This document shows positions 32,162 through 39,876 of a stretch of 47,453 nucleotides of DNA, in pieces. Origin of the DNA: an uncultured Campylobacter sp. (GTDB lineage: Bacteria; Campylobacterota; Campylobacteria; Campylobacterales; Campylobacteraceae); assembly GCF_938045465.1 (NCBI RefSeq), contig NZ_CALIBF010000034.1, positions 1 to 47,453 on the forward strand. The letters are read 5' to 3'. How positions within the stretch are numbered: position 1 is the first letter of the stretch; each line of letters opens with the position of its first letter. The translations under genes were made by a program, and so were the position numbers. The notes below the pieces were generated by a model. That model saw only the letters and a program-made list of their open reading frames with translations, was not told the origin of the DNA and ran no database searches.

Positions 32162-32629
32162 TTGGACGTTAAAACCGCACGCGATATGTTTATCAAAGGC
32201 TACTCAATCACCGACATCGCTACTGCTTGCGGCGTAAGTCGCCAAAGTATCTATGCCGCCAAGGCTAGAGCAAAAGCCGCGGGCGAGGACTGGGATGAGC
32301 TAGCGCTTGCAAAAAACAGAGAGCAAAGTAATACCATCAAAAGCGAGCAAGGTTTTATCCTTGCGCTGATAGAAAGCTTCGAGCGGGCGTTTTCACAGAT
32401 GCAGGAGCTGCCGCCTCAAGAGAGACTAGAAATTTTAAAAGATTATACGCAAACCTATTATAGCCTTAAAGCCCCATTAAAAACGGATTTGAAGGCTCAA
32501 ATGCTAGACGCCGCAAGCCGCGCGATAAATGAGATCGCCGATCTTGCCACGAAGAAAAAATGCGATGCCGTGACGGAGTTTTTAGCTGCGAATGCGGATG
32601 AAATTTTACGCCGGGTGCTTAAGCAATGA
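32162..32629 (+). CDS. putative terminase small subunit (DUF1804-like HTH)
   Basis: N-terminal HTH SITDIATACGVSRQSIY, GEDWD; TTG start with AAGGAGG RBS. Confidence 0.8.
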   Translation: MDVKTARDMFIKGYSITDIATACGVSRQSIYAAKARAKAAGEDWDELALAKNREQSNTIKSEQGFILALIESFERAFSQMQELPPQERLEILKDYTQTYYSLKAPLKTDLKAQMLDAASRAINEIADLATKKKCDAVTEFLAANADEILRRVLKQ

Positions 32630-34143
32630 TCGCAAATGAAGATATCGAAGCATTGCGCGTCAAGCTCAAATCCCTAAGGCGCGCCATCGATCCGCAAAGA
32701 GACGCTAGGATAAAGGCTGCGCGCGCAAGCTTTAAAGAGTGCGTGCGGATCTATTTTAGCGCTCACGTACGCCTGCCCGAAACCTCAAAATTTCGAGCGG
32801 ATTTTTATAAAAATGAGGCGAAGCTAAGCACGAAAAATAGGCATCTGCTTTTTAAGGCTTACAGAGGAGCTGCCAAAACTACCCTGATTTCAAGGCTTTG
32901 GGTACTCTTTAACACCGCTGTAACCGCACGAAAACGCAACTGCGTAATCATTAGCGCTACGATAAATCTATCCAAAAAGACGATCGAATTTATAAAAAAC
33001 GAGCTTGAGGAAAACGAGCTTTTGATTAGGGACTTCGGTATCAGCAAGGGCGATAAATGGACGGAGGAGGAGATCGTATTTTATAGCGGTAAGCAGGCGT
33101 TTAAAATTTCCGCTTACGGCGCAGGCAAAAAGATCCGCGGCGAAAACTGGCGCGGCTTCCGTCCAGATCTTATTATTTGCGACGATCTCGAAAACGACGA
33201 AAACGTCAAAACGAAAGCGCAGCGCGACAAACTTTATGAGTGGTTTGAAAAGGCCATTATGAAGCTGCCTGCCCGCGGCGATAACGCTTATAATATCGTA
33301 GTAGTCGGCACGACGCTGCATTATGATAGCCTGCTCTTTCGCATCGAAGCAAGAGCGGATTTCAAAACTCTATCCTATCCGCTAGTGCGCGCTTTTCCCG
33401 CAAACGTAGATGAGCAAAAGTGGGATATGAAAGAGCTGCTGCTAGATGATAGCAGGCTGGATAAAGAGCGCATAAAACAGGAGTTTCTAAGCTCCAAAGG
33501 CGCCTTTATGAGCGAATATCAAAACGAGCCGCTAAGTAAAGAGGAGGCAAGCTTTAGCGGATATCAAACTTTCGAGCAGATGCCTCTTTGCGACGCCTAT
33601 TATATGGGGATTGACCCCGCATTAGGAAAAAGCAAGGGCGATTATTTCGCCGTAGCTACGCTTGGGGCTTATGAGGGCAAATTTTATGCAAGCGTTAAGA
33701 TGGCAAAAGTAAAGCCCGAGCTTATGATGGATCGTATCATAGCAGCGGCGCTTGAAATTTTACGACTTAACCGCCCGCTTAAAATCGCGATCGAAACTAT
33801 TCAGTTTCAGGAGTTTTTTAAGGATATGCTCGACAAAAAAGCCCGCGAATTAGGGCTTTATCTGCCTATCATAGAGCTTAAAAATAGCGTGCCTAAGCAG
33901 CTTCGTATCGATAGCCTAACCCCGCCTATAAATAACGGCGTGATCCTAAGCGATAAAAACTCGCTCGTTTTCATAGACGAGCTTGATACCTACCCTAAAA
34001 GTGCGCATGATGACGGGCTGGATGCGCTAGAGATGGCATGGCGCATCGCAAAAGTACCGGCGTTTGATTATGCAAGGGCTAGGCAGATAATAAAAGAGCG
34101 GAAACGCAAACGCGATATGATAAAAGATATGTTACAAAGCTGA
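32626..34143 (+). CDS. terminase large subunit
   Basis: YRGAAKTT, RPDLIICDDLE, GIDPA, HDDGLDALEMA. Confidence 0.95.
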   Translation: MIANEDIEALRVKLKSLRRAIDPQRDARIKAARASFKECVRIYFSAHVRLPETSKFRADFYKNEAKLSTKNRHLLFKAYRGAAKTTLISRLWVLFNTAVTARKRNCVIISATINLSKKTIEFIKNELEENELLIRDFGISKGDKWTEEEIVFYSGKQAFKISAYGAGKKIRGENWRGFRPDLIICDDLENDENVKTKAQRDKLYEWFEKAIMKLPARGDNAYNIVVVGTTLHYDSLLFRIEARADFKTLSYPLVRAFPANVDEQKWDMKELLLDDSRLDKERIKQEFLSSKGAFMSEYQNEPLSKEEASFSGYQTFEQMPLCDAYYMGIDPALGKSKGDYFAVATLGAYEGKFYASVKMAKVKPELMMDRIIAAALEILRLNRPLKIAIETIQFQEFFKDMLDKKARELGLYLPIIELKNSVPKQLRIDSLTPPINNGVILSDKNSLVFIDELDTYPKSAHDDGLDALEMAWRIAKVPAFDYARARQIIKERKRKRDMIKDMLQS

Positions 34144-34272: not shown

Positions 34273-35625
34273 ATGAAAAAACAAGATTTAAGATCGCTCA
34301 TTAAGTTTTTAAGACCCAAGGGGGCTTATTCCAAGACCGACGTAGCGGGATATGTAGAGCTAAGCCCCTCTAAGATCCGCGCCGCACTGCTTACCAAGCA
34401 GCAGAATTATTTATTCCCTGCATTTTCGCTCATAATGGATAAGGATAGCGCCGTAGGGGCTGAAATAGAAAAGCGTTTAAGCTCGGTAGAGAATAAATTT
34501 TTTACCCACGATCTGGGCGAGGATCAAAACGAAAATATCGAGCAAATCATAAAGGCTGCGGTGAACGCTAGGATTTTCGGTCTTAGCGTTTTAGAAGTGT
34601 ATGCGGACGAGGACGCAAATATAAAATTTGACGTAGTAGATAGAATATATATTAATATCGTAGAAAACAAGCCCTATCTGCGGATAGGCTCACGCGATAT
34701 TGAAGCCAAAGAGCCGTTTTTTATAGTAGTGAGGCAGGAAGATCCGGCGCTACTTAAAATTTTGTGGCTGGTGTTTGCTAAACATTTCGTGCTTAGCCAT
34801 TATCTTAAATTTGTGGAATTCTTAGGCGTGCCGCCGCTTATCGGCAATAGCTCAAGCGGAGACGAAAACGTCATCACACAAATGGCTGAAGCGCTTGAGG
34901 GTATCAAAAGCGGCAGTTACGCGGTGCTAGGTCCGAACGACATTATCAAAGTGCTTGAGGGTAGAGGAAGCCAAGCCGACTTTATGGAGTTTGTGCGCTA
35001 TTGCGACGCCGAGATAGCCAAAGTAATAAACGGCTCAGTGCTTAGTTCCAACGCAAACACCGCACAAAGCGGCAGCTACGCAATGAGCAAAACCCACGAG
35101 CAAAACCGCGCCGAGATAGTCGCTGCGGACGTGAAATTCGCAAGCCGCTTAGTCGAGCGAATATATGCGCGTCTTGGCAAAAGGGCAAATCTAAACATTC
35201 AAATCGAAAAGGATGTGGATCTGCTCCAGCGCGCACAGATGCTTCAAATTTTGCACGATATGGGATACCGAATGAGCCCTGAAGATATGGCAAAGGAATT
35301 TGACCTGCCGCCAAGCGCAAAAGCTACGGACGCGAAAGAGGGCGACGGATCAAACGGGCGCATAGGCGCAGAGAAAAACTCTGCCGGTGCAGCTAAATAT
35401 CTCACCGAGATAGAGAGGCAAACCGCGCAGCACGATTTTAGCGCCGCAAGCTCGCAAATTTCATCATACGTAAGAAGCGTGGTGGATAAAGCCCAAACCT
35501 ACGAGCAGGCTTATGAGATACTTGCAAAAAATCCGCTAGGTTTTAAACTCGATGCCCTGGAGGAGGAGCTATTTCGGGTCATAGCAAACGCTGAAATTTT
35601 AGGCGCGGACGATCATGAATATTAG
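34273..35625 (+). CDS. Mu gp29-like portal protein
   Basis: FVEFLGVP, YCDAEIAKVINGSVL, GSYAMSKTH. Confidence 0.92.
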   Translation: MKKQDLRSLIKFLRPKGAYSKTDVAGYVELSPSKIRAALLTKQQNYLFPAFSLIMDKDSAVGAEIEKRLSSVENKFFTHDLGEDQNENIEQIIKAAVNARIFGLSVLEVYADEDANIKFDVVDRIYINIVENKPYLRIGSRDIEAKEPFFIVVRQEDPALLKILWLVFAKHFVLSHYLKFVEFLGVPPLIGNSSSGDENVITQMAEALEGIKSGSYAVLGPNDIIKVLEGRGSQADFMEFVRYCDAEIAKVINGSVLSSNANTAQSGSYAMSKTHEQNRAEIVAADVKFASRLVERIYARLGKRANLNIQIEKDVDLLQRAQMLQILHDMGYRMSPEDMAKEFDLPPSAKATDAKEGDGSNGRIGAEKNSAGAAKYLTEIERQTAQHDFSAASSQISSYVRSVVDKAQTYEQAYEILAKNPLGFKLDALEEELFRVIANAEILGADDHEY

Positions 35626-36850
35626 CTTTTTTGCTCCGCCGCAGCAGGTTGTAAAGTATATCAAAGACAAACGGCCGCAGCTTCATTTCGACTATGACGA
35701 GATTATGCACGAGGCTCATCATCGCGTCTTTACAGTCGCAAAGATCACGCGGCTCGATCTACTGAAAGACATTCAAGATAGCCTAGCCCTTGCCGCACAA
35801 AAGGGGCAAGGATTTGATGAATGGAAGCGCGGCATTAAAGATACCCTAGCGCGCAAAGGCTGGCTAGGGGACGTAGCGGTAACTGACCCTAAAACGGGCG
35901 AGCAAAAGCAAATTTACGTGGGCGATCGCAGGCTGCGAAATATCTATAACACCAATATGCGAGTAGCCTATGCCGCTGCGCGCTACCAAAGCCAGATGAA
36001 CTCGGATCTGCCGTATTTTCGTTATGTCGCGGTGCTGGATGATCGCACCAGGGCGAGCCACCGCGCGCTGCATGGGCTGATACTGCCGAAAAACCATCCG
36101 TTTTGGGATAAGGGCTATCCACCTAACGGCTGGAATTGCCGCTGCAAGGTGCAGGTGGTAGATGACGATGATCTGCGGCGAGAGGGCTGGAGCATAGCTA
36201 AGCAAATTCCGCCCACTAAAATCCATCCTGACTGGGCTTATAACGTCGGCAAGACGGACAATTTAGATAAAATTTTAACGGAGAAGTTAGCTAAGCTTAA
36301 CAAAAGTCGTGCGGTTTCAAAAAGCGTTAAAAAGGCGGTTAAAGATGATTTAAAGGACTTTTCGCATAAGCGCGATCTTTACGTTTGGCAGGCCTCGTTA
36401 CTTGAAGCCGTAAGCGAACTATTGATAAAGAAAAATATAAAGAGCCCTATAAATACCTTTCAAGTGGGAACCCTAAAACCGAATATAGTGAAATTTTATA
36501 ACGAAACGATGCAAACCGAGCTAGCAGATATAGGTATAGTCTTAAATAAAGAGAAAATTTTGCACTTTTCGCCCGAACGCAAGAGCAAATACGATCAGGC
36601 ACTTCGCATAGATGAAATTAAAGAGTTGGTTAAAATTTTAGATAAGACTAAAAGATATTTTTTTGATAAAAAGAGCAAAAAAGATATTTTGATTTTTTGG
36701 GATGACGAGCAGGATAAAAGCAAGATTAATAAGGCGGTTATAACGCTAGATTACACGATAAAGAAATTTGGAATATCTAATTTAATCGTTACTCTAGGTA
36801 AGATAGACAAAAAAGATTTAGGAACGTATGATTTAGAGGAGATAAAATAA
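35615..36850 (+). CDS. MuF minor head protein with C-terminal putative ribonuclease-toxin (PBECR-like) domain
   Basis: FTVAK, RRLRNIYNTN, DDRTRASH, YPPNGWNCRC; extra AT-rich C-terminal region of about 170 aa. Confidence 0.9.
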   Translation: MNISFFAPPQQVVKYIKDKRPQLHFDYDEIMHEAHHRVFTVAKITRLDLLKDIQDSLALAAQKGQGFDEWKRGIKDTLARKGWLGDVAVTDPKTGEQKQIYVGDRRLRNIYNTNMRVAYAAARYQSQMNSDLPYFRYVAVLDDRTRASHRALHGLILPKNHPFWDKGYPPNGWNCRCKVQVVDDDDLRREGWSIAKQIPPTKIHPDWAYNVGKTDNLDKILTEKLAKLNKSRAVSKSVKKAVKDDLKDFSHKRDLYVWQASLLEAVSELLIKKNIKSPINTFQVGTLKPNIVKFYNETMQTELADIGIVLNKEKILHFSPERKSKYDQALRIDEIKELVKILDKTKRYFFDKKSKKDILIFWDDEQDKSKINKAVITLDYTIKKFGISNLIVTLGKIDKKDLGTYDLEEIK

Positions 36851-36924
36851 AGCCGCTTGCGGGAGTCGAACCCGCCATCCGCTAATAAATTAGCCAAGTT
36901 ACCAACGTTACTTGCATAAGCGGC
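36851..36924 (-). ncRNA. tRNA-like RNA lacking a canonical anticodon loop
   Basis: Acceptor GCCGCTT/AAGCGGC, D-arm CAAGT/ACTTG with GG, GCTAA-TTTA-TTAGC, T-arm GCGGG-TTCGACT-CCCGC; TGGTATAAT at 36945-36937. Confidence 0.75.
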
Positions 36925-36958
36925 TTTATTAAGGCGATTATACCACCAAGGCGGAAAA

Positions 36959-37510
36959 ATGTCAATAAAAATCACGGGGATGGAGGAGATAGAGGCGAAG
37001 CTCACGGCGCTGCAAAATAGCTTAAGCGGAGCGCAGATGAAAAGCAAGCTATCAAGTATCGGCGAAAAGGTAAGGTTGCGAATAGAGCTAAGCTTCGAGC
37101 GAGAGCGCAGCCCATTCGGGCAGGCGTGGGCACCTCTTAGCGCAAACACCGCCATAGCATATATGAGAAAAAGCGGCTTGCCTAAAAGTGCAAGGGCGCG
37201 GAACCGCGTGTTTTTAGCAAAATTCGGCGCCGGCGGTAGCAAGAAAATTTTGCGATTAACCGGACATTTGGCAGAGAATTGGAGTGTGGATCCGAGCGAA
37301 ACTAGCGTTACGATAAGCAATAATAGCTCGCGCGATGGATTTCCTTACGGGCTAACGCATCAATTCGGCTCACATAACGGCTGGGGTCGGGGCATCTATA
37401 TCCCTGCTCGTCCGTTTCTGCCGATAGATAAAAGCGGAGCGCTGCTGCCCTCGTTGCAAAACGATATAGAAAGCTATCTAATCCGTGAAATAGAAAAGGC
37501 GGTAAAGTAG
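36959..37510 (+). CDS. Mu gpG-like virion morphogenesis protein
   Basis: FERERSPFGQAWAPLS, ILRLTGHL, THQFG, IPARPFLP. Confidence 0.93.
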   Translation: MSIKITGMEEIEAKLTALQNSLSGAQMKSKLSSIGEKVRLRIELSFERERSPFGQAWAPLSANTAIAYMRKSGLPKSARARNRVFLAKFGAGGSKKILRLTGHLAENWSVDPSETSVTISNNSSRDGFPYGLTHQFGSHNGWGRGIYIPARPFLPIDKSGALLPSLQNDIESYLIREIEKAVK

Positions 37511-37531: not shown

Positions 37532-37723
37532 TTATTCGGGGCGGTCTAATTTTTCTTTCAGAGCCTCTTTTGCATATCTGTTTAGCTCTTCATCGGTTTT
37601 TAAAATTTCTATCGTGCAGAAGCTGGTGCCGCATTTCGGACATTTGCGCCAACGCTGCACCGTAGTGCTTTTGATCGTGGCTATGACGCAGGTTTTTTCG
37701 TAGGCACACTTCGGGCAGATCAT
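37532..37723 (-). CDS. C4 zinc-ribbon protein (Ogr/Delta- or NrdR-N-like), candidate late activator
   Basis: MICPKC...RWRKCPKCGTSFCTIE; last gene of the early operon. Confidence 0.75.
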   Translation of the reverse strand: MICPKCAYEKTCVIATIKSTTVQRWRKCPKCGTSFCTIEILKTDEELNRYAKEALKEKLDRPE

Positions 37724-38214
37724 ACTTGCCCTTTGCTGGCACGAAATTGTGCGATCTTGCTTAGCCCGGTGATTAGCTTGCTTGCGTTTGCTGCGCTTAA
37801 TTTTGCCAGCTGCTCTTTTTTGCCAAGCAAAATTTTACATTGTCGCATCGTAAAGCCCAAAAGCCCTCGCTCATCCATACCAAGGCAAGCGGCAAGCGCG
37901 CTTATGCGAGCAAACTGCGACGGGCTTATCCTTTTGACGACGGGCTTCGCCTTGCCGAGCTTACCGCTTGCATTGTAGATCAAATTTCGCCCCAATATGT
38001 CGGGCTTGAAGTCCGTCCCATCCTGCGCACGTCCGCATAAAATATCAAGTGCGCGCTCAAGCTCGCTTATGCTTAGCTCCTTGCAGCTATAGACGCCGAA
38101 GCGGAAGCCGAGCCAATCCTCCCACGCATCCGCCGCCTTTATTTGTCTATATAACGCGGTAGTGTGAATGCGGGTTAGAAGCTGCTTGCGATAAATTTCT
38201 TGAGACTTAGTCAT
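37720..38214 (-). CDS. GemA/gp16-like protein
   Basis: RKQLLTRIH...SCKELSISEL...ASKLITGL. Confidence 0.8.
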   Translation of the reverse strand: MTKSQEIYRKQLLTRIHTTALYRQIKAADAWEDWLGFRFGVYSCKELSISELERALDILCGRAQDGTDFKPDILGRNLIYNASGKLGKAKPVVKRISPSQFARISALAACLGMDERGLLGFTMRQCKILLGKKEQLAKLSAANASKLITGLSKIAQFRASKGQV

Positions 38215-38224
38215 CGCTTGTCCT

Positions 38225-38620
38225 TCATTTTAAATCCCAATTTATATTTTTTAAATAATTTTCAGCTTTTTGAGCTTCTTTTTTACCGGCTTTTGAAGAA
38301 TAAAAGAATTTAATGTATATGCCTTCATCATTACGTGGCATACGTAAAACTCCCCAAAAACCTATGCATCCGCCTCGTTTTCTTTCTTTTTCAAAAACTT
38401 TTGATGTAGAAAATAAGATATTAATATTGTAGTTTCCATTATTTTTGCGAAATTTAAAGATTGGGAATTTTTCTTGAATATCTTTAGAGATTTCATTAAT
38501 AAAACGTGTATAGGCATCCTCTTTTTTTCTATATAATTCGCTTATATCTTTATCTAGTTTGCGAAATTCTTTTAAGCTTTCATAAAGCGTTTCTGCGTTT
38601 TGTATTATTTGTTTTTCCAT
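38225..38620 (-). CDS. hypothetical protein (AT-rich insert)
   Basis: 131-aa ORF with AAGGA RBS. Confidence 0.7.
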   Translation of the reverse strand: MEKQIIQNAETLYESLKEFRKLDKDISELYRKKEDAYTRFINEISKDIQEKFPIFKFRKNNGNYNINILFSTSKVFEKERKRGGCIGFWGVLRMPRNDEGIYIKFFYSSKAGKKEAQKAENYLKNINWDLK

Positions 38621-38636
38621 TTTTTATCCTTTCTTT

Positions 38637-39428
38637 TTAAATTTTACAAAAACAATCTTTTAGCGGCTCGTCGTCAAACGCTAAAGAGCCTTGCCTGTCT
38701 ATGCGGCTAAATTCTGCCTCCATATCCGCGCAGGTCAAATTACCTGCAAACCACGACGTATTAAGCACAGCCTCGCCACTATCTCGCATGGCCAAAAGCT
38801 CGGCTTCGATCCGCTTCATATACTCCCATTCAGGCTTGAAATTTTTCCATATCTGATAGAAAGCGCGCTTTGACTGCGCGGGGCAAAAGTAGCAGCCCAT
38901 GCGGCTGAAAAACCTATATAGTGGATTTTCCATCTCGCGCTCTTTCAGATATATCGTGCAGTCTACTTCGCTCATATCGTAGTCGTCGATGAGCGGATAA
39001 AGAAACTCATTGCCGTCCATTCTGCGATGGGTTTCGTCTGTGGTGTAGCCGATATAGATCTTATACTCGTCAAAGCTCTGGGCCTTGAGCCAACGCTCGA
39101 ATGGCGCAACTTTCGCCTCTCTCCGCCACGCACAAAAGCCCTGCGTCTGCGGAGCGGGGAGGCCCCGAATGGCACCTTTGTTTTCGCCTCTGCTTATGCG
39201 CCCGAAAATGCACTCCTCAAAACTCATTGCAGGTCTTAACTTTGTGATCTCCTTGCCGTATCGCGCCTTGAAATACTCGCCGAGCTTGGCGATGTATGAA
39301 TACATAGTTGCAAATTCGTGCAAAGTATCGTAAAAAACGATATGATCGAGCGGCTTTTTGTCGCGCAGTAGCAAATCTAGCATCGCCGTGCTATCCTTAC
39401 CGCCCGAAAGGGTTGCGATATAGGTCAT
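38637..39428 (-). CDS. PAPS-reductase-family PP-loop protein
   Basis: LSGGKDS, YDTLHE, YPL, NPLY...RMGCYFCP. Confidence 0.88.
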   Translation of the reverse strand: MTYIATLSGGKDSTAMLDLLLRDKKPLDHIVFYDTLHEFATMYSYIAKLGEYFKARYGKEITKLRPAMSFEECIFGRISRGENKGAIRGLPAPQTQGFCAWRREAKVAPFERWLKAQSFDEYKIYIGYTTDETHRRMDGNEFLYPLIDDYDMSEVDCTIYLKEREMENPLYRFFSRMGCYFCPAQSKRAFYQIWKNFKPEWEYMKRIEAELLAMRDSGEAVLNTSWFAGNLTCADMEAEFSRIDRQGSLAFDDEPLKDCFCKI

Positions 39429-39510
39429 CTCTTTCCTTTAAATTTAAACTCTTTAACAAGCCTTTTAATCGCTTTAAAGGCTTGTTAAAGGGCTTAACGC
39501 CCTTTTAACT

Positions 39511-39876
39511 TTAATCGAACCATAGCCTAAGCGTGCCGTCGTCATCTATGTCCAGTTCATCGGGGATGGCCCCACCGAACAAAGAGTGAGTGCCCTTAAA
39601 ATTTTGATCCAGCATGGTTAAATTGACGATATCGATATAAAAAGTATCGATATGCGAATACTTGCCTCTTTCTAAATCGTCTACCATTTCTTGCGATAAA
39701 AGAAGCAAATCATATCCGATTAGCTCGCAAGTAGCTTTTATGCTGCCGTAGGTTATATCGTGGTTGCCTTCCACTATAAAGCTATCGCCTAGTTCTTCGT
39801 TATCAAGCTCAGCGGCTCTTTTAAAAATTCTCTCAAAATCGGCTTTATCTTTTATCCTATATTTTGGCTCTATCAT
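39511..39876 (-). CDS. hypothetical protein
   Basis: 121-aa acidic ORF, GGAGG RBS, ATGA overlap. Confidence 0.75.
   Translation of the reverse strand: MIEPKYRIKDKADFERIFKRAAELDNEELGDSFIVEGNHDITYGSIKATCELIGYDLLLLSQEMVDDLERGKYSHIDTFYIDIVNLTMLDQNFKGTHSLFGGAIPDELDIDDDGTLRLWFD

Follow-up and report, generated by a model that had tools for sequence, protein, structure and literature searches.

A convergent tRNA-like RNA gene paired with a MuF-borne PBECR-type domain in Campylobacter prophages: a candidate RNA antidote

The window analysed here, a stretch of 47,453 nucleotides from an uncultured Campylobacter, poses a question: What could restrain a predicted RNase that is fused to a phage head protein, when no immunity protein is encoded beside it? 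The gene in question (35615..36850, plus strand) codes for MuF, a minor head protein of 411 aa resembling gp30/SPP1 gp7, which carries a PBECR-type domain at its C-terminus. Pfam Phage_Mu_F covers only aa 51-179 (E 2.8e-24), and phrog_220, 'minor head protein and DNA pilot', matches aa 5-381 (E 2e-82). After a gap of 108 bp follows a gene G-like virion morphogenesis or Neck1 gene (36959..37510, plus strand; Pfam Phage_tail_S, E 3.2e-11; phrog_26, E 7.5e-23). An earlier note on this DNA had remarked that the gap holds no ORF for an immunity protein, and the ORF listing agrees: only mechanical frames of 20-29 aa occur there, all within the RNA gene or the promoter described below. Besides these frames, there is one of 189 aa antisense to gene G, and PADLOC gave no meaningful match.

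The C-terminal extension of MuF (aa ~256-411; 36380..36847, plus strand) had been likened in the earlier note to PBECR-type ribonucleases, and its homologue profiles point to the same clade. On its own the window's MuF C-terminus has no Pfam match, the cut-offs of PF18812 (PBECR3) and PF18819 (MuF_C) not being reached; of the 68 representative homologues that we collected, some are solo proteins and others giant polyvalent proteins, and PBECR3 matched 8 and MuF_C 4 of 39 homologues, below the cut-off in those inspected. The profile of the window domain's homologues (A1), however, finds two solo proteins that do exceed a cut-off, L059 (E 3.4e-21) that of PBECR3 (42.8 vs 30) and L057 (E 2.8e-27) that of MuF_C (29.3 vs 27.6). 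Three residues, His317 (36563-36565), Lys323 (36581-36583) and Thr393 (36791-36793), are invariant in alignment A10, which takes in PBECR3 proteins passing the cut-off, and H117 is at least 90% conserved in alignment A1; His317 and Thr393 would supply the catalytic-type His and Thr expected of the PBECR3/MuF_C group. An hhalign comparison of A1 with a narrow PBECR3 alignment (10 sequences, 72% mean identity) was not significant (probability 0.2), and a PDB sequence search with the A1 profile returned nothing below E 0.6. The MuF C-terminus thus appears from its sequence to be a divergent PBECR3/MuF-C domain and a predicted RNase, its link with the family being by transitivity only; the BECR fold expected of such a domain is a helix with a sheet of 4-5 strands after it. 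In the passages of Iyer et al. 2017 (PMC5512222) that deal with these domains, the MuF-C of phage Mu is called inactive, and PBECR domains are considered to target possibly mRNA or crRNA rather than tRNA.

What fills the gap is an RNA gene on the minus strand. The earlier note had drawn it as a 73-nt cloverleaf (36852..36924), and both sequence and RNAfold return the same structure: a 7-bp acceptor stem (GCCGCTT/AAGCGGC) that extends to a 13-bp closing stem over the whole predicted transcript body (36846..36930, minus strand), a D-like arm (CAAGT-AACGTTGGTA-ACTTG), a T-arm (GCGGG-TTCGACT-CCCGC) agreeing with the consensus of the Rfam model, and, in the place of the anticodon arm, a hairpin with the 4-nt loop TTTA (GCTAA-TTTA-TTAGC). 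CCA is not encoded, since TTTATT comes after the acceptor 3' strand, where TTTATTTTAT stands; all eight host tRNAs listed, unlike the RNA, end in an encoded CCA. The cloverleaf is the minimum free energy structure (-35.8 kcal/mol, z = -5.6), equalled by none of 200 shuffles. The complement strand folds almost equally well (z = -5.3), so that energy alone carries no strand information, and the strand was assigned because of the T-loop consensus and the promoter.

Is this RNA then a tRNA? It has the cloverleaf of tRNAs, including the 7-bp acceptor, the D-arm and a T-arm whose loop fits the consensus, and lacks the 7-nt anticodon loop. ARAGORN reports no tRNA gene in the window, Rfam RF00005 has no match in the RNA region at E up to 10, and the only Rfam correspondence of the tRNA kind is a 17-nt match of the T-arm to tmRNA. 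With R2 the RNA scores 56 bits (E 8e-8) and is the sole match in its own genome. Its distant relatives L065 (41.2 bits) and L066 (35.9 bits) pass the Rfam tRNA cut-off of 29, both with 4-nt loops, and descent from a tRNA is plausible because these two still score as tRNA. Two other identities were considered and rejected. A copy of a host tRNA or an att remnant has no second copy in the genome and no close counterpart among the 35 host tRNAs found, a comparison in which specific mimicry of any host tRNA was not seen either. A bacterial Y RNA (YrlA) would lack its partner, the Ro60/Rsr TROVE protein (PF05731), in a genome that is 99.8% complete, and the Rfam YrlA match reaches 14.4 bits vs a cut-off of 69.

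The RNA has what looks like a promoter of its own (36937..36965, minus strand). The element TGGTATAAT (36945-36937, minus strand), which had already been spotted upstream of the cloverleaf, turns out to be part of a full sigma-70 promoter matching the consensus at 12/12 positions, with TTGACA (36965-36960), a spacer of 17 nt and a TG extension (TGgTATAAT). Its -35 hexamer lies within codons 1-2 of gene G, and the RNA 5' end is predicted at the position 7 nt past the -10 box. A -10 box precedes 40 of the 44 family members, the four exceptions being downstream units of arrays. Such a near-consensus promoter would drive constitutive synthesis of an RNA of about 85 nt, as we infer from sequence. 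The U-rich tract TTTATTTTAT (36842..36851, minus strand), which follows the closing stem and lies antisense to the end of the MuF coding sequence (EEIK and stop), is likely the terminator of the RNA, read as such from the sequence and not listed by a simple terminator scan.

The 85-nt RNA body is 100% identical in the genomes of five other species, with no variable column among the 85 vs 11.9% overall. Among 24 divergent copies, pairing amounts to 94.9%, compared with 61.6% in shuffles. Both partners have changed in 20 of the 21 pairs, and these compensatory changes are spread over three helices; the covariation score is 0.836, a value reached by 0/500 shuffles, vs 0.224, and slid controls attain 0.124 at most. 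The counts were made on an alignment fitted to the model, and thus leaning towards structure, because the MAFFT alignment of all variants is structurally wrong at the 5' end. The RNA is a member of a covarying family absent from Rfam, syntenic and covarying in many genomes far beyond chance; it is not a remnant, nor does it serve just as a terminator. A second class of partner RNAs, class 2, is less tRNA-like and has no canonical T-loop. A DNA search of the region vs 50,697 phage records gave no match, and a protein search of the phage records gave three records. The RNA region carries the annotation of a 31-aa protein in one or more deposited phage genomes.

How closely is the RNA tied to the domain? 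Co-occurrence downstream of other MuF-PBECR genes, proposed in the earlier note as a check, is nearly complete. Within the genus, the RNA follows the MuF stop in 24 of the 25 loci with a MuF ORF; in the remaining one, L023, the MuF gene is interrupted and the RNA element lies farther on. A domain-profile search across Campylobacterales found the domain in 21 of 401 genomes, and among the 20 other loci of the order there are 18 in which a structured RNA with a promoter, in convergent orientation, lies at the stop, and two fragments of 69 and 72 aa that lack it; no intact-looking domain ORF without the RNA was seen among the loci surveyed. The spacing is equally constrained: in all 29 pairs measured, across 17 genera, the RNA 3' end falls between -23 and +4 nt from the stop codon, with overlap in 25, and in the window it overlaps the MuF stop codon by 2 nt. 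This adjacency is common to MuF fusions and to solo genes outside phages, for solo PBECR3 genes have the RNA and no second ORF in non-phage neighbourhoods. In turn, 213-aa MuF-only paralogues have no RNA of their own, and in phage Mu the genes F and G overlap by 4 nt, leaving no room for one. The RNA therefore tracks the domain, not MuF or gene G. A search with P0072, a solo PBECR3 protein from elsewhere, gave nothing in viral contigs; in metagenome contigs it gave a single type of locus, where a promoter-like site in convergent orientation is accompanied by GC-rich hairpins and no tRNA-like fold, a case too thin to generalise.

Domain and RNA also seem to move together. Compared with the loci L021 and L026, the segment formed by the coding part of the PBECR domain and the RNA gene (36391..36928) has an identity of 27-62%, whereas its flanks, gene G being the conserved one on the right, keep ~87-100% in most 60-nt windows, with a few short dips down to 48%. 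Identity is back at 95% from 36929, the predicted RNA start, so that the limits of the segment coincide with the domain start (~aa 259) and the first base of the RNA. The G+C content changes as well, from 49% in the MuF N-terminal part to 32% in the PBECR coding part. These comparisons indicate that domain and RNA have been swapped as one cassette between near-identical prophages, and the protein has the layout of a MuF polymorphic toxin, namely a MuF N-terminus with a variable C-terminal domain exchanged by recombination.

Displaced pieces of such cassettes are found too. Behind all three displaced C-terminal tails (in L036, L033 and L043) lies an RNA of the type paired with that type of tail elsewhere, and RNA-only copies and arrays of 2-4 units occur in G008, G011, G098 and G133, the RNA-only arrays combining several RNA types under one promoter. 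That RNA-only arrays exist, and that intact domain genes without an RNA were not seen, fits the logic of toxin and antidote; an orphan RNA might just as well serve a function unrelated to the domain. The RNA type is not dictated by the catalytic core, because L034 and L043 share MuF genes that are ~98-100% identical until ~60 nt before the stop, yet differ in their RNAs. Overall, tail identity and RNA identity correlate weakly (Spearman 0.26), and some correlation of this kind would be expected from linkage alone.

The reading that we favour, to which we give an even chance, is that the PBECR3/MuF-C-type domain of MuF belongs with the convergent tRNA-like RNA in a module of two parts, in which the RNA is the cognate neutralising antidote, perhaps acting as a decoy. 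The near-consensus constitutive promoter would yield an RNA of ~85 nt folding into a tRNA-shaped L, with an acceptor/T-arm minihelix, a D/T elbow and a tetraloop instead of the anticodon loop. The RNase domain, in recognising the tRNA shape, would bind this pseudo-substrate without a productive cut, so that the enzyme would be kept inactive, both in the lysogen and in the cell that makes the phage, up to the incorporation of MuF into heads. Since proteins of the MuF family accompany the DNA, a fresh host lacking the RNA would then receive an active enzyme, and cells or prophages possessing the RNA or RNA arrays would be protected. The earlier note had already read the pair as an RNA-antitoxin system with a tRNA decoy, and this reading has come through in part. 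The genetic coupling speaks for it, by way of the obligatory adjacency, the cassette swap, the orphan tails with their RNA and the RNA-only arrays. A decoy of tRNA in the strict sense fits less well with the lesser resemblance of class-2 RNAs to tRNA, with the lack of any mimicked host tRNA and with near-identical domains that have different RNAs.

Could the RNA act on the message instead of the protein? In a cis-antisense control like that of type I systems, which we judge unlikely, the RNA would pair with late or read-through ORF mRNA, to which it would be complementary over its full length, cleavage by RNase III would set the expression of MuF/PBECR and perhaps of G, and the tRNA shape would be there for stability or kissing alone. 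The tail-to-tail overlap in 25/29 pairs is as this idea requires, resembling the geometry of the 3'-overlapping type I pairs bsrG/SR4 and txpA/RatA; moreover, the complement strand folds nearly as well and the promoter faces the late operon with its -35 on the G start codon. Yet the overlap with coding sequence is just 1-23 nt, and antisense pairing needs no T-loop, D/T loop pairing or tetraloop arm, all of which are kept despite sequence divergence. RNA-only arrays located at a distance from all ORFs have no antisense target, and the protein is not the small membrane peptide of type I toxins: it is a soluble enzyme domain of ~150 aa, or a MuF fusion of 411 aa.

It is similarly improbable that the RNA, rather than inhibiting the domain, serves it as substrate, cofactor or cargo, either bound or processed into a ribonucleoprotein that is packaged with MuF, like a packaging or pilot RNA, or needed for activity or targeting. 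Adjacency, cassette and position fit this alternative equally, the module sits among head genes, polycistronic arrays imply processing, and the relevant passages of Iyer et al. 2017 (PMC5512222) predict RNA binding for the MuF-C of Mu. Against it are the solo modules outside phages, the RNA-only arrays of mixed type under one promoter, not easily accounted for if the RNA is a cofactor and its enzyme is missing, and the fact that phage Mu assembles heads with no comparable RNA gene at that site. Still less probable is a phage counter-defence decoy unrelated to MuF-C, a tRNA mimic soaking up host tRNA-directed nucleases or tRNA-binding sensors and lying next to the domain by linkage. Phage tRNAs that evade anticodon nucleases are known, prophages carry the RNA, and its tRNA-like shape lacks a cleavable anticodon loop; linkage, however, leaves unexplained the placement at the stop codon in 29/29 pairs from 17 genera, the solo non-phage modules, the co-exchange with the domain and the matching orphan units of tail and RNA. 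The absence of any RNA function, with the gap between F and G holding just an intrinsic terminator or the decayed remains of a tRNA or att site (alternatives that the earlier note had allowed for), is very improbable: a stem followed by a T-rich tract at the gene end and the scores of L065 and L066 above the Rfam tRNA cut-off are what it can invoke, and it is at odds with the compensatory changes in three helices of 24 divergent copies, the consensus promoters of the copies themselves (40/44), the lack of variation in 85 nt vs 11.9% of columns overall, the tandem and orphan copies, and the habit of Mu-type phages, which transpose and use no tRNA att site.

If the antidote reading of the module is extended beyond this locus, a new protein-RNA conflict module would emerge, in which MuF-borne and solo PBECR3 RNases are each checked by a tail-to-tail tRNA-mimic 'immunity RNA', tips and RNAs diversify and are swapped as cassettes, and promoter-driven RNA arrays, accumulated by bacteria and prophages, shield against incoming phage RNases; this wider proposal we put forward tentatively, leaning somewhat to the side of doubt. 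In the literature searched, neither a tRNA-like RNA next to MuF/PBECR genes nor an antitoxin resembling a tRNA is described; many TSS have been mapped in the RM1221 prophages by Dugar 2013 (PMC3656092), whose supplementary TSS tables may already list the transcript. If true, the proposal would add a principle of RNA immunity to the biology of polymorphic toxins and toxin-antitoxin systems, namely RNA-based immunity to a virion-delivered effector, in what would be the first polymorphic-toxin-like system with an RNA immunity gene, and the RNA-only arrays suggest that hosts or resident prophages might exclude related phages in a simple way. Few predicted effectors of phage polyvalent proteins are as common as the PBECR/MuF-C domains, and the cassette-linked RNA partner offers a direct experimental handle on them, through toxicity and rescue, a binding partner and a likely class of substrate. 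Apart from this, a plausibly tRNA-derived RNA family absent from Rfam has been defined.

How does the module compare with known systems? Several RNAs imitate tRNA, for instance the tRNA-like domain of tmRNA, the bacterial Y RNA YrlA, viral TLS and mascRNA. The present RNA shares with tRNAs and tRNA-like RNAs the acceptor/T-arm minihelix, the T-loop consensus, the GG of the D-loop and polycistronic arrays implying tRNA-type processing, and differs from tRNAs in having no anticodon loop, no encoded CCA and no ARAGORN call. In type III toxin-antitoxin systems (ToxIN, CptIN, TenpIN), an endoRNase is neutralised by an excess of structured RNA, and the modules are mobile on phages, plasmids and chromosomes; the antitoxin consists of tandem repeats upstream on the same strand, processed by the toxin, and the toxins are not known to have the BECR fold. 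By analogy, a predicted RNase and a putative neutralising structured RNA form mobile modules here as well, but the RNA is a single tRNA-shaped unit, downstream, convergent and overlapping the stop, and tandem units occur only in orphan arrays. In the orphan CT-immunity modules of CDI/Rhs systems, of which Zhang and colleagues reportedly gave a general account in 2012, C-terminal tips that have been displaced persist downstream alongside the protective gene cognate to them, and arrays of protective genes without toxin exist. The displaced tails of L036, L033 and L043 with their RNA and the RNA-only arrays are alike, except that the protective element would be, by analogy, an RNA and that the carrier is a phage head protein.

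Closer in architecture are the MuF polymorphic toxins of temperate phages (Jamet et al. 2017, PMC5576092), with their MuF N-terminus, variable and toxic C-terminal domain, protective gene directly downstream and prophage context; immunity is there a protein, whereas here an RNA gene in opposite orientation takes its position and no ORF is present. Closest of all as to the domain is the account of MuF-C/PBECR in Iyer et al. 2017 (PMC5512222), whose sections on these proteins describe BECR-fold RNase domains of phage polyvalent proteins, predicted to be packaged and injected. The domain of the window resembles them in its fusion to the C-terminus of MuF, in its occurrence also alone or within giant polyvalent proteins and in its His and Thr/Ser; unlike in those sections, which name no inhibitor, immunity gene or RNA partner, it is always paired, and exchanged, with a convergent structured RNA.

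The RNA sits among the head genes of a Mu-like prophage, which run in the order terminase (32626-34143), Portal_Mu (34273-35625), MuF (35615-36850) and a G-like morphogenesis gene (36959-37510). Pfam recognizes Phage_Mu_F at residues 51-179 of MuF and nothing in the ~230 remaining residues. MuF and gene G are 108 bp apart, and the only reading frames in between are mechanical ones of 20-29 aa, none of them credible as an ORF. Phage Mu has an overlap of 4 nt between F and G, and the genes that come after G on its strand encode the capsid maturation protease (I) and major capsid protein (T). The gene order of the window is different, for past gene G its genes switch to the minus strand (37532-40361), namely a 63-aa Cys-rich ORF, phrog_286, an unmatched 131-aa ORF, a PAPS-reductase-like gene (phrog_424; 38637-39428) and a Mu Gam-like gene (39873-40361).

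On the minus strand, a promoter of the form TTGACA-17 nt-TGgTATAAT (36965-36937) fits the sigma-70 consensus in 12 of 12 positions and has an extended -10 box, 7 nt past which starts a predicted RNA body of 85 nt (36930-36846) that folds into a cloverleaf on a 13-bp closing stem. Its acceptor measures 7 bp, its D-like arm carries GG in the loop, its T-arm reads GCGGG-TTCGACT-CCCGC, and the anticodon arm is replaced by the hairpin GCTAA-TTTA-TTAGC; CCA is lacking, and TTTATTTTAT follows the stem. Its fold energy is -35.8 kcal/mol (z = -5.6). Folding hardly separates the two strands, with z = -5.3 for the complement, so that the choice of strand rests on the T-loop consensus and the promoter. 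ARAGORN called no tRNA here, and Rfam matched the T-arm alone. These checks thus bear out everything that the earlier note had read from the sequence. Some of this sequence is used twice: the A-rich last codons of MuF (36836-36850), encoding …EEIK before the stop where relatives have …IKIK or …IRLK, complement the U-tract of the RNA, and the -35 hexamer TTGACA complements the ATG TCA of gene G (36959-36965).

Five further species-level genomes of the genus share the 85 nt at 100% identity and the flanks at 91.7-96.2%; in an alignment of five such loci, from which L008 was omitted for its interrupted gene, 253 of 2119 columns vary overall versus 0 of 85 in the RNA. Variation-free windows begin only between 36474 and 36891, and fixed 85-nt bins place them in the domain core and at the RNA. 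With the MuF N-terminus as query, MuF was detected in 22 of 78 genus genomes. Of 25 loci retrieved that have a MuF ORF, some being duplicates of one place, 24 carry a -10 box and an opposite-strand, T-arm-bearing element within 230 nt past the stop. At the 25th, L023, the MuF gene is interrupted and the RNA element lies further on. On this contig (G030:C178; L008 984-1107), ~122 nt replace ~79 nt of the domain-coding region (window 36465-36543), producing a premature stop and an open frame of 329 aa; the downstream RNA is intact and identical.

The genus loci comprise 16 distinct RNA sequences of about ten very different types, all with a long closing stem, a D-like arm, a short hairpin and a T-arm. 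In a model-fitted alignment of 24 copies, paired cells amount to 94.9% (61.6% in shuffles), changes on both sides occur in 20 of 21 pairs, and the covariation score of 0.836 exceeds that of shuffles (0.224; 0 of 500 reach it) and of slid controls (at most 0.124), with the caveat that fitting to the model favours the structure. A -10 box stands 3-20 nt upstream in 40 of 44 copies, 26 of them with TG; the other four are downstream units of arrays. Judged by these sequence comparisons, the RNA is a conserved family and not a remnant. The family is absent from Rfam 15, and two of its tRNA-like (class 1) members still pass the Rfam cut-off for tRNA.

A full-library search with the C-terminal domain of MuF returned 68 representative homologues, among them giant polyvalent proteins as well as MuF fusions of ~410 aa and solo proteins 130-280 aa long, and the homologue profile picks up solo proteins throughout Campylobacterales. 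Pfam PBECR3 matched 8 of 39 homologues and MuF_C 4 of 39, those inspected lying below cut-off; the solo protein of L059 exceeds the PBECR3 cut-off (42.8 vs 30 bits) and L057 that of MuF_C (29.3 vs 27.6). Comparison by hhalign with a narrow PBECR3 alignment was not significant. His317, Lys323 and Thr393 are invariant in the joint alignment, and His plus Thr/Ser is the active PBECR configuration in the relevant passages of Iyer et al. (PMC5512222), where MuF-C is already counted among the PBECR domains, is called inactive in Mu itself and is given no partner. By transitive homology and motif, the domain is placed in the PBECR3/MuF-C clade as a divergent representative. Several prophages (L046-L048, L039) have a second, 213-aa paralogue with the MuF domain only, ~1.5 kb from the MuF-PBECR gene and with no RNA of its own.

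How closely is the RNA tied to this domain? Protein-first, the domain occurs in 21 of 401 genomes and 17 of 96 genera of the order Campylobacterales, and a convergent, promoter-driven structured RNA stands at the ORF end in 18 of 20 loci, the window's own excluded; the other two are fragments of 69 and 72 aa. Measured in 29 pairs, the distance of the RNA 3' end from the stop is in every case between -23 and +4 nt, and in 25 pairs the two overlap. Several partners are solo genes of ~150 aa among ordinary chromosomal neighbours, with no further small ORF. Twelve of the 18 RNAs are of class 1, and six are less tRNA-like (class 2), keeping the four-way plan, a tetraloop-capped arm and a G/A-TATG motif before the last hairpin; in all six, 5-6 covarying Watson-Crick pairs (GACGG/CCGTC, AACGG/CCGTT, TACCGG/CCGGTA) replace the D/T loop contact. 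The RNA of the isolated phage CAM-P21 scores 53.2 bits with the family model and that of a Helicobacter apodemus prophage record 48.8 bits; the 31-aa 'hypothetical protein' annotated opposite the former (MW462221; L094 2982-3093) is probably a mis-annotated RNA gene. On a metagenome contig (L099 690-800), a solo PBECR3 gene from another lineage faces an opposite-strand TTGACA-N16-TAGACT site, after which GC-rich hairpins, not tRNA-like, reach the stop codon; partners beyond Campylobacterales may thus exist.

RNA-first, the model found 31 places in 22 of 78 genus genomes and matched no true tRNA there. No domain ORF lies within 1.5 kb of three places (G008, G011), and two others (G075) adjoin decayed ORF pieces. 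With filters off, G008 has four different tRNA-like units in tandem, spaced 4-14 nt (L086 1197-1588, G008:C49), and G011 two (L082 1501-1838, G011:C1), each array with a single promoter and ordinary chromosomal surroundings. Single orphans occur in G098 (L102 1373-1470, G098:C55) and G133 (L105 1501-1581, G133:C8), the latter beginning ~15 nt past the 3' end of an apparent tRNA gene, with T-arm and CCA in the flank. No PBECR ORF or phage gene lies near the RNA-only copies of these four genomes. Among 151 order genomes seven have matches, four adjoining a domain gene and three orphan, one directly past an apparent tRNA gene. In these searches an intact domain was never seen without an RNA, while the RNA is sometimes alone.

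The earlier note had proposed a MuF C-terminal RNase toxin with an uncleavable tRNA decoy as its RNA antitoxin. A toxin/antidote relation would indeed fit best, given the obligatory adjacency, the exchange as one cassette, the orphan units of tail plus RNA, the antidote-only arrays, the very strong promoter and the lack of an immunity ORF. A tRNA-shaped RNA with a tetraloop for its anticodon loop would be a plausible pseudo-substrate of a BECR-type RNase, and tRNA cleavage is established for relatives such as colicins D and E5 and certain CdiA-CT toxins. A 2026 preprint (10.64898/2026.08.28.747851) groups PBECR3 with colicin D-like enzymes. Rival readings are that the RNA, overlapping the stop codon as it does, exerts antisense control; that it serves the domain as cofactor or cargo; or that it is an anti-defence decoy unrelated to the domain. 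A terminator or remnant is disfavoured by the present evidence. Literature searches turned up neither such an RNA nor a tRNA-like antitoxin, and dRNA-seq supplements for C. jejuni may list the transcript.

The exchange itself can be followed by comparison with L021 and L026. Up to ~36390 most alignment windows match at ~87-100%, apart from a few short dips, lying further upstream, that reach 48%. Identity then drops to 27-62% over 36391-36928 and is back at 95% from 36929, where the RNA begins; the promoter belongs to the common flank. The coding part of this cassette has 32% G+C versus 49% in the rest of MuF. Strict specificity between RNA and domain appears contradicted by L034 and L043, whose MuF genes are ~98-100% identical until ~60 nt before the stop and yet have different RNAs. 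Two tandem RNA genes, each with its own promoter, lie between MuF and G at L036 (512-854), L033 (519-841) and L043 (2534-2840), the second behind what is left of a different, displaced MuF C-terminal tail, which sits between the RNAs; in all three, displaced tail and RNA are of types that co-occur elsewhere. Such units of tail plus RNA resemble the CT/immunity orphans of CDI and Rhs loci.
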